Positions 1 to 8,161 of a DNA stretch of 8,161 nucleotides are shown here, one piece after another (the stretch's first letter is position 1; every line of letters begins with the position of its first letter). A model generated the notes under the pieces. That model was not told where the DNA came from. It saw only the letters and a program-made list of their open reading frames with translations, and did no database searches. Origin of the DNA: a virus (lineage: Duplodnaviria > Heunggongvirae > Uroviricota > Caudoviricetes); IMG/VR virus record IMGVR_UViG_3300029886_000031; one strand, 5' to 3'. The position numbers and the translations under genes are program-made.

Positions 1-1149
1 CTGAAGCTGTAGCGGAATCCCACGCCGTTATCATCCACCACCACATCGCTGTTGGTGTACGGCCACACCACATCCGACGGGCGGTCCTGAACGAACGTCA
101 GCGTCTGACCGTTCCATACCGGCATACAGCGCATCGCAGAGCAGAAATCACTGAGAACGTCCCACGCCTTACGCTGTTGTGCCAGGTACGCATTAAAGGT
201 CATCCGCGGCTCGGTCCCCCCGAAACCATCCGGGACCGTCTGGTCGCAGTACTGCCCGATGGCATACAGCGCCCACTTGTCCACATCCGCCGCCCCCAGA
301 CGTTTTCCCATGCCGTAGCGCGGGTGAGTCAGCATGTCCCACAGACACCAGGCCGGGTTGTTGCTGTATGCCGGTTTCAGACTGCCGTCCCAGATNNNNN
401 NNNNNACTATACGTGCGTTTTTCCGGGTCATAGTTTGACGGCACCTGGATGATGCGACCGCGGATATGGTAGTTCACCGTCATCTGCTGGCCGCCGAACT
501 GCTCCGCATCCACCTGCAGCCCCACAATGGCCGTGTTCGGGTAGCACTGTTTCACATCGATGATTTCGGTGTATGACGACCACAGCGTCTTATTCTGCAG
601 CTGGTCCGTGGTGCTGTCCGCCGTCTCCCTGACCATCCGGATGTTAAAGGGCCGGGGAGGCAGATTATCCAGAATCACCGAGGCCAGGAACTGTGAGGTG
701 GTCTTGCCGTTAATGGTGACGTCCTTTTCTGTCACCCAGTTACCGTTACGCTGTAACTGAATCAGCAGGCGGACGGATGCCGGGTTACGGTCACCCTTTG
801 AGGTGGTCTCCACCAGTGACTGCACCCCGAAGGTAACCCGCAGGCGGTCAATGTTCGCGGACGTAATGGTGCGCGTCACCGGTTTTGCCTTCGTCACTTC
901 CACGCCCAGTCCGGTTTCAGCTCCGGAGGACTCAAAGCCTTCCGGTGGTGTCTGCTCCTGCTCCCCGGCGCGCCAGACCGCCGTCACACCGTGTATCACG
1001 GGATTGCCGTCCGTGTCCGTCAGTGGGGTTTTGTTCACCAGAATACTCTGCAGTCCCTTCACCGGACCTTCTATCGGTCCCTCACCAATCGCATCAATCA
1101 CGCTCATCATCTCACGAGGCGTGTGTGCCTTACCGCCACCTTTTCCCAT
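1..1149 (-). CDS. J: Host specificity protein J (central tail fibre / tail tip), N-terminal part; C-terminus lies beyond the window start. Apparent frame break at the N-run 396-405 is an assembly artefact.
   Basis: Translation from ATG at 1147-1149 (MGKGGGKAHTPREMMSVIDAIGEGPIEGP...GEQEQTPPEGFESSG...TRTITSANIDRLR...FNIRM...DSTTDQLQNKTLWSSYTEIIDVKQCYPNT) closely resembles the lambda J N-terminus as I recall it. Below the N-run the homology continues in a different frame (my manual translation of 1-395 gives IWDGSLKPAYSNNPAWCLWDMLTHPRYGMGKRLGAADVDKWALY...). SD-like GGGGAAGG on the mRNA (plus coords 1154-1161) 4 nt upstream of ATG. Confidence 0.93.
396..405. other. Assembly gap / ambiguous bases (10 N) inside gene J
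   Basis: Run of N seen directly. J homology continues on both sides but in different frames, so the N length does not equal the true missing length. Confidence 0.95.
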
Positions 1150-1491: not shown

Positions 1492-2172
1492 TTATCCCTG
1501 TCGCCCGATAACCACGACCGTTCCGCCCCCGCCTTCATCACGGGTGCTGATGTCCTGGGATATACGGCGGGAGCCAACCAGCATTTCCCCGTAAGGCACC
1601 GGCATCGGGTTCCCCTGGGCAATCATGTTATCCAGCGAGGAAAAGTACGTGTTCTGTCTGCCGTTATCCGTTGCGCGGTAATCCGGTGTTTTTGCCTTCG
1701 GGGCCAGCATCTGGGCCACACCGCCCAGAATCATGCTGGCTCCAAGTGAAAACAGCATCGTGGTGGCAGAAAAACCACCGGCTGCCAGGGCTGAACCCCA
1801 TAACGCCATTGATGCCCCGGCAGTGAAGAAAGAGCCCACGATGGCTGCCGCCCCCAGCACAATCTGCAGTCCACCCTTTCCGGCCCCGGCCAGTCGCGGC
1901 ACAATATGGATGACCGTTCCCTCACCCAGCTGTTCGTGAAGACGGGCGTACACCGCCTCCGGTGCCGTGTCATAACCGGCAATACGTATCTGGTACCAGC
2001 CTTCGTTCATCTGACGGCGAAAGCCCGGCACCTGTAACGACAGCGCCCGGATGGCTTCCGCTGCCGTGTTCACATACAGGCTGAGGCGGCGGCCAAATCG
2101 TTGTAAATCCCCGTGAAGGCAGATGCGTGCCAGTGGCGGTGACGCCAGACAGAATGCGTTCGTCGTTGCCAT
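1492..2172 (-). CDS. I: Tail assembly protein I
   Basis: 226-aa translation (ARICLHGDLQRFGRR...AEAIRAL...WYQIRIAGYD...IHIVPRLAGAGKGG...QIVLGAAAIVGSFFTAGAS...LFSLGASMILGGVAQMLAPKAKTP...NTYFSSLDNMIAQGNPMPVPYGEMLVGSRRISQDISTRDEGGGG) strongly resembles lambda gpI as recalled. Its start lies 103 bp inside the 3' end of K, as in lambda. Confidence 0.93.
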   Translation of the reverse strand: MATTNAFCLASPPLARICLHGDLQRFGRRLSLYVNTAAEAIRALSLQVPGFRRQMNEGWYQIRIAGYDTAPEAVYARLHEQLGEGTVIHIVPRLAGAGKGGLQIVLGAAAIVGSFFTAGASMALWGSALAAGGFSATTMLFSLGASMILGGVAQMLAPKAKTPDYRATDNGRQNTYFSSLDNMIAQGNPMPVPYGEMLVGSRRISQDISTRDEGGGGTVVVIGRQG

Positions 2173-2812
2173 TTTTCGGAATACCTCTCCCGTTTACTCA
2201 GTTGTTCAGGCAGATGGTGAAGCAGCTCACCGTTGCCGCAGTAAATGGCGGCATGGTTCGGTACCGAAGCACCAAAGCAGCACAGCAGAATATCGCCCGC
2301 CTGTGCAGAGGACAGGGGCACCCGGTAAAAGCCGGTGACCGCCATATTGTCCAGGTAAAGGTTCTGACCGTTGCGCCACCAGTCATCCTCGCGATGAAAA
2401 TCCGGCATTTCAGTCCCCGCCAGATGATAAGCATCCCGGAACAGCGTGTAACAGTCCGTCACCCCGTGCTCAAAGCGCGTCCTGTCAGATGTGGCACACA
2501 GCGGAATTTGTGAATGTCACCCCGGCAGACCAGCCACCAGGGCAGTGCGCTTTTTATCTGCAGCCGCCGGTCAGCCTCGCTCAGCCAGGGCAGCCCACCG
2601 GGATGACTGTGGACCAGTGCCACAATCTCCCCCTGCATCTCTGCCCGCAGCCAGTCTTCCGGTGCGATACGAAAATACGCCTCCGGCTCTGCAGAAATAT
2701 TCACACAAGGGATATACCACTCCCCCTCCGACGTGCTTATCACGAAGCCGCACGACTCCGCAGGCGCACACCGCCGGGCATGCGCCAGAATCGCTGATTC
2801 AGTCTGTGTCAT
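2070..2812 (-). pseudogene. K: Tail tip assembly protein K (JAB/MPN-like N-terminal and NlpC/P60-like C-terminal regions), disrupted by an apparent 1-nt deletion; reads as two ORFs (2459-2812 and 2070-2462)
   Basis: N-terminal ORF from ATG at 2810-2812 (MTQTESAILAHARRCAPAESCGFVIS...EIVALVHSHPGG...DIHKFRCVPHLTGR) stops at TGA 2459-2461. The homology continues in the +1 frame (TDCYTLFRDAYHLAG...DFHREDDWWRNGQNLYLDN...LLCCFG...PNHAAIYCG...ELLHHLPEQLSKRERY...AFTGIY) to the stop at 2070-2072. Lambda K as I recall it reads ...HLTGRRFEHGVTDCYTLF... continuously, implying one missing base near 2475-2480. Could be a real inactivating mutation or a sequencing error in a draft assembly. Confidence 0.6.
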
Positions 2813-2822
2813 AAACCGGGAT

Positions 2823-3521
2823 TTACTGCGAAAGTTTATTAATGGAAAGGAAACCGCCAAAATTGCCGACATTCCTGCGCAGTTCACACCCGCGCATGCA
2901 CTTGCTGCATCTGTCCTTACGGATATCCGTGGTGGGGTTGTCGAACTCATCCGCCACCGCAGGACCGTTATACCCGCATTCATCTCCCCGGTAATCCCAC
3001 ATACAGGTGTTCGCCAGCATGATGCGACCGGGAAACAGCGCCCCATCCGTCTCGGTCGGTGTAGCCAGCACAAACGAGGCCGTCATGGCTGTCAGCTGCG
3101 ACATCTGCTCCACCACCCAGCGGTCACTCAGCTCCTGCTCCGGGTCCGCCTCCGGATTGCCCGCAACGAAATTCACCGCATCCAGAAAACGGGCATACAC
3201 CCGGCGGCGGACCACCGTGGCCCCCACCAGACTCTGCAGGTCTTCCGCCATCCCGGTGACCAGACCGAACAGATTGGACACCGTCAGCGACGGTCTGGCA
3301 CTGCTGCCCTTCCCGCTCATCTCAAAACCGCTGCCGTCAATCGGGTATGCCTGATATTGCCGCCCCTGCCAGGTGACCGGCTCCCCTTTTTCATTCAGCT
3401 CATTACAGAAAAAATACCGCTCACCGCCCTGTACCGTCAGGTCGATTTCCCAGAGTACCACCCGCGGTGACTGCTCTGACTTAACCGACTCGTTCAGACT
3501 TTCTTCGCGAATATCCTGCAT
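2823..3521 (-). CDS. L: Minor tail protein L (tail tip assembly)
   Basis: 232-aa translation (MQDIREESLNE...VVLWEIDLT...GGERYFFCNELNEKGEPVTWQGRQYQAYPI...MLANTCMWDYRGDECGYNGPAVADE...CSKCMRGC...NVGNFGGFLSINKLSQ) is highly similar to lambda gpL, including the conserved Cys cluster. ATG at 3519-3521 overlaps the M stop (ATGA). Confidence 0.95.
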   Translation of the reverse strand: MQDIREESLNESVKSEQSPRVVLWEIDLTVQGGERYFFCNELNEKGEPVTWQGRQYQAYPIDGSGFEMSGKGSSARPSLTVSNLFGLVTGMAEDLQSLVGATVVRRRVYARFLDAVNFVAGNPEADPEQELSDRWVVEQMSQLTAMTASFVLATPTETDGALFPGRIMLANTCMWDYRGDECGYNGPAVADEFDNPTTDIRKDRCSKCMRGCELRRNVGNFGGFLSINKLSQ

Positions 3522-3847
3522 CAGTTCACCACCTGCTCAATCGTACAACTGAAATCACTGTGCCTGGCGTTATCTGTGACGCTCCACTCCCGGCACACCA
3601 CCCTCACCGTCAGGTTATGTTTCGGCGGTCGGTAACCACCATGCCACGATAAAAATTCATCCAGCCAGCGCCGGGTTGGTTCATCCGTCACCCGGAACAC
3701 CGCCTGAAACGTCTTCAGTCTGGCATTAAGTCCCGTCGGTCGGCGCTGTTCATAACCGTCACCAAACCGAACCCTCACCACCGACGGTTTCTCACTCACC
3801 TGCATCCCTTCACGCGGGACCAGATGCAGCGTTTTTATCTCAGCCAC
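3521..3847 (-). CDS. M: Minor tail protein M
   Basis: 108-aa translation with VRFGDGYEQR...GLNA...LKT and C-terminal ...EQVVN resembling lambda gpM; position between H and L. Start overlaps the H stop by a few nt. Confidence 0.88.
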   Translation of the reverse strand: MAEIKTLHLVPREGMQVSEKPSVVRVRFGDGYEQRRPTGLNARLKTFQAVFRVTDEPTRRWLDEFLSWHGGYRPPKHNLTVRVVCREWSVTDNARHSDFSCTIEQVVN

Positions 3848-6800
3848 TCAGCATTCCTCCGTCACGTCGCATGGACAGCATCACCGCCTGCACCCGCTGG
3901 TCAATCAGCTGCACAAGACTGCCTGCCGCCTCCGCCCCTATCTGTCCGTTAGCCCCGTCATTCTGAATGGCGATGTGGTAGACCGGGGAATACACCAGAC
4001 CGGCACTGCCGTTCATACTGCCCACCGCGCGTACGCCCAGCGAGCCATCCGCCGCCCGGGTCAGGGGCATAATGGCTTCAGGTCCGGCTTCCCCCATCAG
4101 CCCGGCCCCTTTTGCAAACGCAAAGTACGTGGGCGTGTCCACAATGCTGTTGCTGTACGCACTCAGGTTTGCCGAGGTATACACGCCGCCTTTTGCATTG
4201 GCCACCGCACCGCCCAGCCAGTCACCAATGCTGCCAATAAATCCTCCCGCACCGGACATACCGTTTGCCGCCGTCTTAATTCCGTTGACAATCGCAGCAT
4301 TCATAAGAACTTTTGAGATTTCCTGCAGTACGGATGAGGCCCAGTTGCGCCATTCCACTTTGTTTCCGTTCAGCATCTCCGTGATGTTATTCACCATCCC
4401 TGAGATACCCTCCGTCGCAAGCTGTGCTGCCTGTGAGGCGTAATCGGATGCATTGTCCACCCAGTTACTGAGCCCCTCCTGCAAGCCTTTCTGCCAGTCC
4501 GCACGCTGCGCATCCGATTCGGCATAAAAGGCTGCCTGGTCCTTAAGGCGTTCGCTCAGATACTGCGCGTTCTGTGCCCGTGCCTGTCTGTAAAAATCCT
4601 CACTGATATCCCCGGTCTGATACTGAGACTGAAGGTCCGCATCCTTCTGGCGGAAGCTGTCACGGATCTGCTGCAACTCCCGCATGCGTTCCCTGGCTCG
4701 TTCTCCCTGCCCGTATCCCAGCAGTTCGGCTTCATTTGATGCACGCGCAGCCACATTATCATTCTTCAGGGTCTCTTCCCGGGATCGCAACTGTTCCCGG
4801 ATTTTTTGCTGGTCAATCAGGGCCGCGTTACGCAGCAGTTCCTGCTTCTGCATCTCCGTCAGGGTTTTCAGTTCGCCCTGCGCAGTCTGGTACTTCAGCT
4901 TCGCCAGCTCTGTATTCTGACCCGCCAGTGCCAGTTGCTCTTTCTGCTGCTTCAGTAGCCGGGAAAAACTGTCTTCCGCTTTTTCCGTCTCTGATTTTCC
5001 ACCCCGGGATTTAGGTTTGTTCGCCTCGTTATTACGCCAGGCTTCCAGAGCATTACTGATATAACGCTGTCTCGCCTCCTGATACGAATCCCCCACAAAA
5101 CCAAGGTCATCCGCCGCATACCCCAGCCGGGCACGCTCTTTTTCCTCCCCCTTCAGTCGGGACAGGGCCAGCTCACGTTCTGTTTTTGTCAGGGCGCTCT
5201 GCTGTTTATCATCCAGGGTGGCCTGCGGCAGCCGTAACGGTACATTCACCAGTCCCTGACGCTGCTGAAGCAGTTCATTCCCCAGCCCCAGCAGACGGTT
5301 GAATTCCGTATGCTGACCGTTCATAACCAGCATGGACTGGTACACCTTATTCTGCTCTGCCGCCTGCTGACGAATTAACGCCACACGACGGTCTTCCAGC
5401 CCGGCAAGCACATCCTGAATGGACTGCGCTTTTTCCTGCATCTGTGCCAGACGGGACTGCTCAACGGCAAGCTGCTCTGTNNNNNNNNNNNNNNNNNNNN
5501 NNNNNNNNNNNNNNNNNNNNNNNNNNNNNNNNNNNNNCGGTTGTCCAGCCAGGGTTAGCCAGAACATACTGATATCCAGCGATTTTTTCCTGCAGGGATT
5601 TCACCCGGCTGGCCTGTTCATCAATCAGCCGGTTCTGCTCTGCCAGCGCCGCCCGTGTTCGTCCTTCATTATCTGAGGCTTCAGGCAAAGACATTGACGG
5701 CGTTTTATGCGCGATTTCATCTATCGTCAGTGCATACTGGCGCGCTGACTCCCTGGCCTGCTCCTGATTCTGGTACAGCGTATACCATGCTGCTGCCCCC
5801 AGCATCACCAGTCCGGGTACGCCACCAACCAGTCCCAACGCACCAGTCATCAGACGTGAGCCCACCGCCGTTGTACTGTTCAGCTCATTCTGGGCTGCGG
5901 TTCTGGCAGCAATATTTCTGTTCAGGCGTTCCTGTGTGGCCGCCAGACGGGCTTCTGCAGCAATCTGCATCTCCGTCCCGCGGGCTGCCGCCACAGCCTG
6001 CTGTGCACGGTACACGGCTGCCCTTGCCCGCGCCGTGGCAATCTGCGTCCCCCTGAGCTGTGCTTCCGCCAGTGCCACTTCATTACGTGCTGCCGTCACA
6101 AGTCCTGCCGTGGCAGACACCGCTCCGGAGGCCATATTGCCAAAGTACCGGGCAACCCCGACGGCAACCAGCGCCCCCGCGGCTGTTGCCACATTATCAA
6201 TATTACCGGCAACACCGTTCAGCACGCCGGAGAGCGTTTTCGTCGCTCCGCTGGCTTCATTCGCGCCACCCACCCAGGCCATAAAGGCGTTTTCCACCTT
6301 TGTGATCCCGTCAGAGACCGTTTCCGGCATGGCGGCATATTCATCACGCAATACCCCCAGCTGGCTGATTAACGCAGGAACGACTTTATCCGCCGTCAGT
6401 TTGCCGTCGTCCGCCATCGCCTTAAGGTCTTTACGGGCCACGCCCATACCCGCAGCCAGTGCACGTACGATCCGGTCTCCGCTTTCATTGACCGAATTAA
6501 ATTCCTCACCGCGTAACACACCCTGTGCCAGCGCCTGGCTGAACTGGGTGATCACCGAGCCCGCCTCTGCCGTACTGGCACCGGAGATTTTCAGCCCCGT
6601 GGAAATGGCCTCCGTCACCTTCAGCACATCATCAGCACTGTAACCATATTCACGCATTGAGGCTGCCGAGCGGGCAAACAGGGCCGCATTATCTGAAAAT
6701 GCCGTGCCCGTCCGCTGGCTGATATCCATCAGCACTTTCTGTGATGACGAAAATTCATCGGATGACTGCGACGCCTGTTTCAGTCGGGCATTCACGGAAC

Positions 6801-7074
6801 TCCATTCATCGGCCAGAGAAATCAGGTGTCCGGTGGCAAAGGCACCTGCAAATGCCCCCGCCGTTCCGGCAGCTGAAGCGCGGATTTCCGTCAACTGGCT
6901 GTTCAGCTCAGCCAGGGCGCGTCGCTGCACCCGGGCGACTGCGGCAGCCTGACGCCCGCCATTCTGCAGGGTCCGGTAATATTCACTGCCCATGCGGGAA
7001 GCCCGCTGGATCTCCGACTGGAATGACTGCGAATTTGCCGAAATTTTGATAATCAGTTCACGTAACGTCGCCAT
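3840..7074 (-). CDS. H: Tail tape measure protein (lambda gpH-like), interrupted by assembly gap 5481-5537; the two supplied ORFs (5461-7074, 3840-5567) are one gene
   Basis: Long Ala/Gln/Glu-rich coiled-coil-like translation typical of tape measure proteins. C-terminal segment (...GGFIGSIGDWLGGAVANAKGG...HIAIQNDGANGQIGAEAAGSL...RRDGGMLSG) resembles the lambda H C-terminus as recalled (...NNDGTNGQIGPAAL...MRDGGLFSG). Located between G/T and M. SD GGAGAAAGG upstream of ATG 7072-7074. Confidence 0.93.
5481..5537. other. Assembly gap / ambiguous bases (57 N) inside the tape measure gene
   Basis: Run of N seen directly. Tape measure reading frame differs on the two sides, so the true gap length is unknown. 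Confidence 0.95.
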
Positions 7075-7121: not shown

Positions 7122-7436
7122 TCATGACTGTGCTGCGAAGCTCAGCGCGTCTTCCAGCGCCGCAAACGGATCCACCTCCGGCTTATCCTCATCCTCGCCC
7201 CAGCAGAGCATGGCGTCCTTCAGTGCAACATTCATCCCCTGTGCCCCAAAAACCGCTTTCACGATCTGTGCATTACGGATATCCCCGCGCTCATCACCCA
7301 GCGGGGATACCCTGTCGAACTCCATCCACATCATCGCCTCGCTCACACTCAGGCTGTGCCGCAGTTCGGATAAGGTGCGCCCCAGACGGAGCGCAAGTCG
7401 CATCAGAAAGCGAATTTCCGGGCGGGCTACTTTTTT
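7122..7436 (-). CDS. T: Tail assembly chaperone T portion, expressed as a G-T fusion by programmed -1 ribosomal frameshift (full fusion product spans 7122-7801)
   Basis: The -1 frame is open from the slippery site to the stop TGA at 7122-7124 (…KKVARPEIRFLMRLALRLGRTLSELRHS...EDEDKPEVDPFAALEDALSFAAQS). Arrangement matches the conserved G/GT paradigm immediately upstream of the tape measure gene. Assignment is by synteny and mechanism, not by strong sequence similarity to lambda gpT. Confidence 0.75.
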   Translation of the reverse strand, partial: KKVARPEIRFLMRLALRLGRTLSELRHSLSVSEAMMWMEFDRVSPLGDERGDIRNAQIVKAVFGAQGMNVALKDAMLCWGEDEDKPEVDPFAALEDALSFAAQS

Positions 7437-7801
7437 CTGGCCGACTCTGCATCAGCGATCAGTTCCAGTGCCTGACGCAGCAACCGGGCATGTACCGGAC
7501 CATAGACGGCCAGCACCTGCTCACGGTCGTCCGGAGCGAACACCCGCTGCAGATCCGTATCACACAGGACATCGCAGAACAGCGTCACATCCGCTTCTAG
7601 GTTACGGCGGGTTTTCGCCACCACCGACAGGGTATCGTCATCCTCTCCATCACCATTGAGCACTTCCTGCCACAGATACCAGGCCTCTGCCGAAGGCTCC
7701 CGCAGCACCACGCTGACATTACCCCATTCCGGCACCTTCACCGTTTTATGACGAAACCCTGACAGTCTGGCCAGCGCCAGCGTTTTCAGATCCTTTTTCA
7801 T
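7427..7801 (-). CDS. G: Tail assembly chaperone G (zero-frame product)
   Basis: ATG at 7799-7801 preceded by SD AAGGGGA on the mRNA (MKKDLKTLALARLSGF...); ends ...ADAESARKK then TAG at 7427-7429, immediately after the slippery heptamer. Position between major tail gene and T/H. The supplied ORF start at 7849 is an upstream in-frame extension overlapping V. Confidence 0.78.
   Translation of the reverse strand: MKKDLKTLALARLSGFRHKTVKVPEWGNVSVVLREPSAEAWYLWQEVLNGDGEDDDTLSVVAKTRRNLEADVTLFCDVLCDTDLQRVFAPDDREQVLAVYGPVHARLLRQALELIADAESARKK
7430..7436 (-). promoter_or_regulatory. Programmed -1 ribosomal frameshift slippery heptamer A_AAA_AAG at the G/T junction
   Basis: mRNA reads GCC AGA AAA AAG TAG (reverse complement of plus 7427-7441). 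A_AAA_AAG is the classic -1 slippery motif (as in E. coli dnaX), with the zero-frame stop directly following. Confidence 0.75.
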
Positions 7802-7815
7802 GATGACCCATCCCC

Positions 7816-8161
7816 TTATCCGGCGGCTGCGCTCACTGTCACGGTGCATTCAACAGACGTCACACTCTGTGCTTTCTCTGCCGAATCGGTCACCACGCAG
7901 GTATATTTCCCCGCATCAGCGGACTGCGCACCTGGCTTACTGAAGGTGTCTGTCGTCTGCCCGTCAACCGGCTGACCATCCTTCTTCCAGGCGTATTTAT
8001 ACGGCGGCGTTCCCCCGTTGGCACTGACTGACATTGTCAGCAGCGCACCTGTATTCACGGTAAGTGTTTTATCCAGATTTTTCACAAACGCCAGCGGTAC
8101 CACAAAGGACACCGGTTTGCCTTTCATACGCAGTGAAAACGTTGCTGCCACCACGCCGTTG
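7816..8161 (-). CDS. V: Major tail protein (gpV-like), C-terminal Ig-like domain region; N-terminus lies beyond the window end
   Basis: Translation ...TPPYKYAWKKDGQPVDGQ...AGKYTCVVTD...VECTVTV has Ig-like-domain character as found at the C-terminus of lambdoid major tail proteins. Stop TAA at 7816-7818; position immediately upstream of G. Reading frame is open to the window edge. Confidence 0.75.
   Translation of the reverse strand, partial: NGVVAATFSLRMKGKPVSFVVPLAFVKNLDKTLTVNTGALLTMSVSANGGTPPYKYAWKKDGQPVDGQTTDTFSKPGAQSADAGKYTCVVTDSAEKAQSVTSVECTVTVSAAAG

Follow-up and report, generated by a model that had tools for sequence, protein, structure and literature searches.

A well-described counterpart of the gene considered here is gene K of bacteriophage lambda. 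Its product, gpK, is composed of a JAB/MPN domain and an NlpC/P60 domain (Iyer, Burroughs and Aravind 2006, PMC1779556) and, though absent from virions, is needed for the assembly of tails (PMC12617516, PMC10721106). In the lambda genome K is found in the order L-K-I-J, and its 3' end overlaps I by 103 nt (K 14276-14875, I 14773-15444).

The lambda reference sequence (J02459/NC_001416) has K annotated as a protein of 199 residues, a figure that is still quoted in papers (PMC7291167), while a further 46 N-terminal codons with homology are found upstream in a different frame. The reference lacks a G at 14266 (position 1267 of L245) compared with the resequenced lambda genomes PV340536.1 and LC730321.1, both of which encode a K of 247 residues. 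KT232076.1, the imm21/imm434 hybrids, DE3, HK629/630, and others give match spans of 213 vs 212 nt, consistent with the same extra base, and the shorter reference allele is common to only four records. The missing G puts the first 46 codons out of frame, and the shortened K was annotated from an internal ATG. Single-base omissions in K lead in this way to misleading calls of truncated or split genes; the 199-residue version conceals the N-terminal part of the JAB domain, with its conserved AESCGF sequence.

Prophage context of the window

The window (the whole stretch of 8,161 nucleotides analysed here) is, as judged from its nucleotide sequence, the tail module (V, G/T, H, M, L, K, I, and J) of the lambda-like prophage Phi4 of Escherichia coli ST131 strain EC958. 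The EC958 locus retrieved for comparison (L001) is prophage Phi4, which has a truncated invertase (PMC4134206). All long open reading frames of the window are on the minus strand and, according to the ORF list and the EC958 annotation, follow the layout of a lambda-type tail module. The annotated order in EC958 is tail completion protein, major tail subunit, assembly chaperone, T, tape measure, and phage tail protein (M), followed by L, a C40 family peptidase (K, 6001-6744), tail assembly protein (I), gpJ, and lom, the last of these cut by ISEc12. The corresponding features of the window are as follows.

3' end of V, minus strand, encoding an Ig-like C-terminus
7427-7849, minus strand, G, with T in the -1 frame
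7122-7403, minus strand, T
3840-7074, minus strand, tape measure gene H, broken by 57 N
3521-3847, minus strand, M
2823-3521, minus strand, L
2070-2812, minus strand, K
1492-2172, minus strand, I (tail assembly protein I), intact and identical to EC958, overlapping the 3' end of K by 103 nt
1150-1491, spacer of 342 nt between I and J
1-1149, minus strand, 5' part of J

Base-by-base comparison of the window with EC958 reveals no substitution over about 8.1 kb. The sole differences are three deletions, of 1 nt in K, 15 nt in M, and 27 nt in J, and two runs of N, all of them located between positions 396 and 5537. Apart from the site in K, which is described below, these are:

Junction at about 3631, minus strand, private in-frame deletion of 15 nt in M (3521-3847), removing RAFLW (KSFLW in lambda M)
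Junction at about 1112, minus strand, private in-frame deletion of 27 nt in the N-terminal region of J, removing AKDNLKSTQ, which is identical in lambda J
396-405, run of 10 N in J, standing for 3 real bases of EC958 (+7) and shifting the frame of J
5481-5537, scaffold gap of 57 N in H, standing for 65 real bases (-8)

The spacer that separates I from J is much longer in this prophage than in lambda (342 vs 60 nt), and is non-coding. On its plus strand, antisense to the tail genes, are found a near-consensus promoter, TTCACA-16-TATAAT (1355-1382), and a predicted intrinsic terminator (1462-1478) with a T-run, which together suggest a transcript of about 100 nt. The predicted fold of the spacer is no better than that of shuffled sequences (z=-0.56), and an Rfam search of both the whole window and the spacer gave nothing at the gathering score, with only weak, chance-level matches below it. 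PPompW prophages, phage ASU11, and others contain the spacer with 100% identity, mostly without annotation.

The two parts of K and the missing base

Gene K of the window is read in two frames. The N-terminal part, translated on the minus strand from 2812 to 2459, reads MTQTESAIL...CVPHLTGRALSTG-stop, or more fully MTQTESAILAHARRCAPAESCGF...HSHPGGLPWLSEAD...CVPHLTGRALSTG-stop, with the TGA at 2461-2459; the residues ALST at its end are out-of-frame junk. The C-terminal part, one base back, begins with (G)VTDCYTLF, reads ...SDRTRFEHGVTDCYTLFRDAYHL...AAASACM-stop and also ...TRFEHGVTDCYTLFRDAYHLAG...AAASACM-stop, and ends at 2070. Its first codon, GTG (2462-2460), overlaps the stop codon of the N-terminal part as GTGA (2462-2459). 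The elements of the split gene are listed below.

2459-2812, minus strand, N-terminal part of K, 117 codons and TGA, with the whole Prok-JAB/MPN domain and 100% nucleotide identity to EC958 K
2070-2462, minus strand, -1 frame, C-terminal part of K, with the NlpC/P60 (C40 peptidase) domain and the catalytic-Cys motif TDCY
2459-2516, minus strand, 58 nt in which both frames are open (script scan)
2477-2479, minus strand, site of the missing base, a single c at 2478 where relatives have cc (comparison with EC958)

The N-terminal part matches the Pfam family Prok-JAB (PF14464) with E=4.5e-16 over residues 3-105 and contains both AESCGF and HSHPGGLPWLSEAD; it thus carries the JAB/MPN domain with the JAMM motif expected in the lambda gpK family. 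The NlpC_P60 domain (PF00877, E=1.2e-12), which is also characteristic of that family, is found in the C-terminal part, but is encoded in the -1 frame. A match to both domains across two frames is far beyond chance. In an intact relative the two domains are present in a single protein of 247 residues, where Pfam places them at residues 3-105 and 111-224, so the break in the window falls in the interdomain linker. The position of the gene is also that of the family, between L and I and upstream of J, and the overlap of its 3' end with I is likewise present. In place of the single uninterrupted ORF of about 247 codons, however, the reading frame of the window is stopped after codon 117, whereas the K ORF is uninterrupted in EC958, in resequenced lambda, and in all near relatives.

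The missing base is one c of the cc pair at plus-strand position 2478, which on the coding strand reduces codon 112 from CGG to CG. EC958 reads GGA CGG CGC TTT GAG at this site and the window GGA CGC GCT TTG AG; the intact sequence with the extra G is GGACGGCGC. Restoration of the G yields ...HLTGRRFEHGVTDCYTLF..., which is identical to K of EC958 and of resequenced lambda, and the restored protein as a whole is identical to the latter in 214 of its 247 residues. The original prediction, that K homology switches frame near 2475-2480 by loss of a base in a CGCGC stretch (CGGCGC in relatives) and that restoring the base would recover the lambda sequence, is borne out by the translations, the Pfam domains, and the alignments to EC958 and resequenced lambda. 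It was right that the C-terminal part continues in a second frame, although the direction it gave, +1, was not correct, as the actual frame is -1 (equivalent to +2).

The closest relative is K of EC958 (C40 family peptidase, WP_000194730.1; O25b:H4-ST131), which is identical in 743 of 744 nt and has the same flanking genes V, G/T, H, M, L, I, and J. It forms one ORF of 247 codons, from which the window differs by the absence of one G in codon 112. Hundreds of E. coli genomes, of ST131 and other types, also have K of the EC958 type. A megablast search of 5,426 complete E. coli genomes with the K region of the window returned hundreds of matches, the best with 99.9% identity and spanning 744 nt against the 743-nt query, and phage records gave the same result. 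The alignment to close relatives that the original prediction had called for shows in these a single ORF of about 247 codons with one base more than the window. Lambda K itself is not frameshifted between the domains, as K of the window is, but its reference sequence went through the same kind of event at a different position (codon 46 vs codon 112).

The allele carrying the deletion was found nowhere else. A 79-nt query centred on the junction aligned to 11,837 places in 3,863 of the 5,426 complete E. coli genomes, none of them exactly, the best match having 98.8% identity and one gap. The 39-mer that includes the deletion had no exact match in the viral, genome, and metagenome contig collections; the intact 40-mer had at least 120 matches in the viral collection, 2 in the genome collection (one genome per species), and 109 in the metagenome collection, at least 231 in total. 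There is no record of the truncated product of 117 residues among 153 billion gene positions. The C-terminal part of 130 residues is on record in 10 contigs, none of which has the deletion of the window; in these, K is broken elsewhere or by runs of N.

Recoding and divided function

The same operon contains a genuine programmed -1 site, that of the G/T frameshift of lambdoid tail chaperones. In the window this site, A AAA AAG at 7436-7430 of the minus strand, is intact and identical to EC958, and is directly followed by the stop codon of G (TAG, 7429-7427), with T continuing in the -1 frame. The shift needed to read through the break in K is in the same direction, and K might by analogy be thought to use programmed -1 ribosomal frameshifting. 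While the G/T site has a conserved slippery heptamer that is kept in all relatives, the site in K has neither the heptamer nor its conservation. A script scan of the 58-nt overlap found no heptamer of the type X XXY YYZ; the only spots allowing -1 re-pairing there are TTG to TTT (2473) and G GGG TGA (2464, just before the stop codon). The 74 nt downstream fold with -19.0 kcal/mol, no better than shuffled sequences (mean -19.08, z=0.03), leaving no sign of a stimulatory structure. The two-frame arrangement was seen in none of the 11,837 K places and in none of the three contig collections, and every relative has a single ORF. Since the arrangement is not conserved, a programmed frameshift in K is rejected and in practice refuted. 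The original prediction had set this explanation aside, and the absence of a heptamer, of a stimulatory structure, and of a conserved two-ORF arrangement upholds that choice; it had also pointed out that intact homologues sharing the arrangement would overturn the idea of a lesion, and none does so at this site.

Very unlikely, although somewhat less so than programmed frameshifting, is that K is split yet functional, either with the JAB and NlpC/P60 domains made as two polypeptides through translational coupling at GTGA, or with a low level of full-length protein made through a -1 P-site slip of tRNA-Gly on G GGG (a 'shifty stop'). Several details of the site are in agreement with it. The break lies in the linker between the Pfam domains (residues 105-111), the GTG overlaps the stop codon, and G GGG TGA permits perfect -1 re-pairing; a slip on G GGG would alter only RFEH to ALST within the interdomain linker. 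K homologues with only the NlpC/P60 domain are also known in some phages and prophages (PMC1779556). However, the arrangement is conserved nowhere and hence bears no sign of selection, and no good Shine-Dalgarno sequence is seen at the proper spacing before the GTG. The GGGG-T context is found in every intact K, as is that of GTGA, which makes both contexts coincidental. Tail assembly proteins K limited to NlpC/P60 are a recurrent form of the gene in some phages and resemble the C-terminal ORF located beside I in the window, but their describers suspect that such versions are degenerate copies in prophages (PMC1779556), and the window, unlike them, has a fused gene that is standard except for a private lesion of 1 nt. 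If the deletion were real and tolerated, it would show that a covalent link between the two peptidase domains is dispensable in the tail-tip assembly protein.

Artefact of the draft or recent mutation

The original prediction offered two explanations, a sequencing error or the inactivation of K as its prophage decays, and both hold as alternatives for what is a plain 1-nt deletion with respect to otherwise identical relatives. The evidence now sharpens the choice and tips it towards error, because no substitution, but three private deletions and two gaps of N of incorrect size, are present within 5.1 kb. The break in K is probably an assembly or sequencing artefact in the draft, with a probability of roughly 0.7, and is most likely not biological. 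On this reading the window would come from a scaffolded draft of Phi4, the prophage of E. coli ST131 (EC958), with one base of K lost during sequencing or assembly, and K of the organism would most probably be a normal single gene of 247 codons, encoding the non-structural tail-tip assembly protein with its JAB/MPN and NlpC/P60 domains.

The runs of N support the artefact, as the original prediction had taken them to indicate draft quality. Their lengths differ from those of the real gaps with respect to EC958, which marks them as scaffold gaps of estimated size in a stitched draft. Together with the three deletions they make five structural anomalies within 5.1 kb, against not one substitution compared with a widely conserved ST131 prophage, a pattern far more in keeping with a stitched draft of short reads than with evolution. 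The number of places with a K-like gene in a complete E. coli genome has a median of 2 and a maximum of 15, and the L-K-I-J block is 95-96% identical between different types of prophage; short-read assemblies fragment in such repeated, nearly identical regions. All five anomalies may be inferred to be artefacts of contig joins or coverage dropout in a region that is repeated among several lambdoid prophages. The G missing from K in the lambda reference is a precedent for such an error, a single-base omission in this very gene having already shaped its textbook annotation. One-base breaks in draft scaffolds are routine, and the break here affects a well-known gene in a well-known operon and prophage.

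The main alternative, which we regard as unlikely but by far the more serious of those considered, is a genuine and very recent private frameshift, in which one G was lost in K of a Phi4-type prophage, so that translation stops after the JAB domain (117 residues) and NlpC/P60 is not made, with the deletions in M and J as additional damage to a cryptic prophage in decay. The sequence as given does lack the base, and a real decay of Phi4 is plausible because the prophage is already damaged in EC958, where lom is cut by ISEc12 and the invertase is truncated (PMC4134206). The loss would also be consequential, as gpK is needed for tail assembly even though it is absent from virions (PMC12617516, PMC10721106); a genuine frameshift would probably abolish the process, and the prophage would no longer build tails. 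The outcome would be only a further cryptic copy of the prophage, in an ST131-like strain.

The larger deletions bear on both sides of this comparison. Both are in frame, which random artefacts would give only about 1 time in 9, and this counts against an artefact. Neutral decay is expected to leave several-fold more substitutions than indels, and spontaneous deletions usually have longer flanking direct repeats, as in replication slippage. Three deletions with no substitution in 8 kb are an unlikely pattern for neutral decay, and the deletions in M and J are flanked by only 2-nt microhomology (CG for M, and AG), which, given the longer repeats expected of real events, counts for an artefact. 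The three deletions are also interspersed with scaffold gaps of incorrect length. No other genome or contig searched contained any of the three alleles. At the junction in M, the extra 15 nt are present in each of the 372 matches of full length in complete E. coli genomes, none of which is exact, and the shortened M protein has no record among 153 billion gene positions; at the junction in J, a 48-nt query, in which by design a match could start only from the contiguous junction, had no match in complete E. coli genomes. The lesion in K is private and, over the 8.1 kb compared with EC958, is accompanied by neither the neutral substitutions nor the sharing within a lineage expected of a pseudogene in a decaying prophage.

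Breaks of K are also seen in other assemblies. Three scaffolds (L009, L010, and L011) have runs of N inside K, and in several error-rich assemblies K is broken at other positions. In a group of NCBI drafts with contigs of 4.5-5.2 Mb (L002 and L004-L007), many tail genes (H, L, K, and J) are fragmented in a manner typical of uncorrected indel errors. As such drafts chop K, orphan NlpC/P60 fragments of K with 130 residues in databases are often products of sequencing. The gaps near K in the 10 contigs that have such a fragment represent a selection effect and not independent evidence, because these contigs were found through a broken K.

The 82 contig ends of independent short-read assemblies mapped onto EC958 are spread about every 128 nt, so the proximity of an end to an anomaly means little. 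The only exact coincidence is at the site of the 10 N, where L059, a contig of an independent draft, ends (position 8438 of the EC958 locus); the same contig starts 53 nt from the gap in H. A search for paralogues of K in EC958 through the published prophage coordinates covered Phi1, which is P2-like, and Phi2, which is Mu-like, neither with K; paralogues with 95% identity would give repeat boundaries everywhere, and such a search would have no discriminating power. Finally, an exact 40-mer of E. coli lambdoid K is also present in a contig of 3,408 nt labelled Streptomyces flavalbus CGMCC 4.7400 (L243, NZ_JBHTEB010000006.1), where it probably represents contamination with E. coli or lambda-like sequence.
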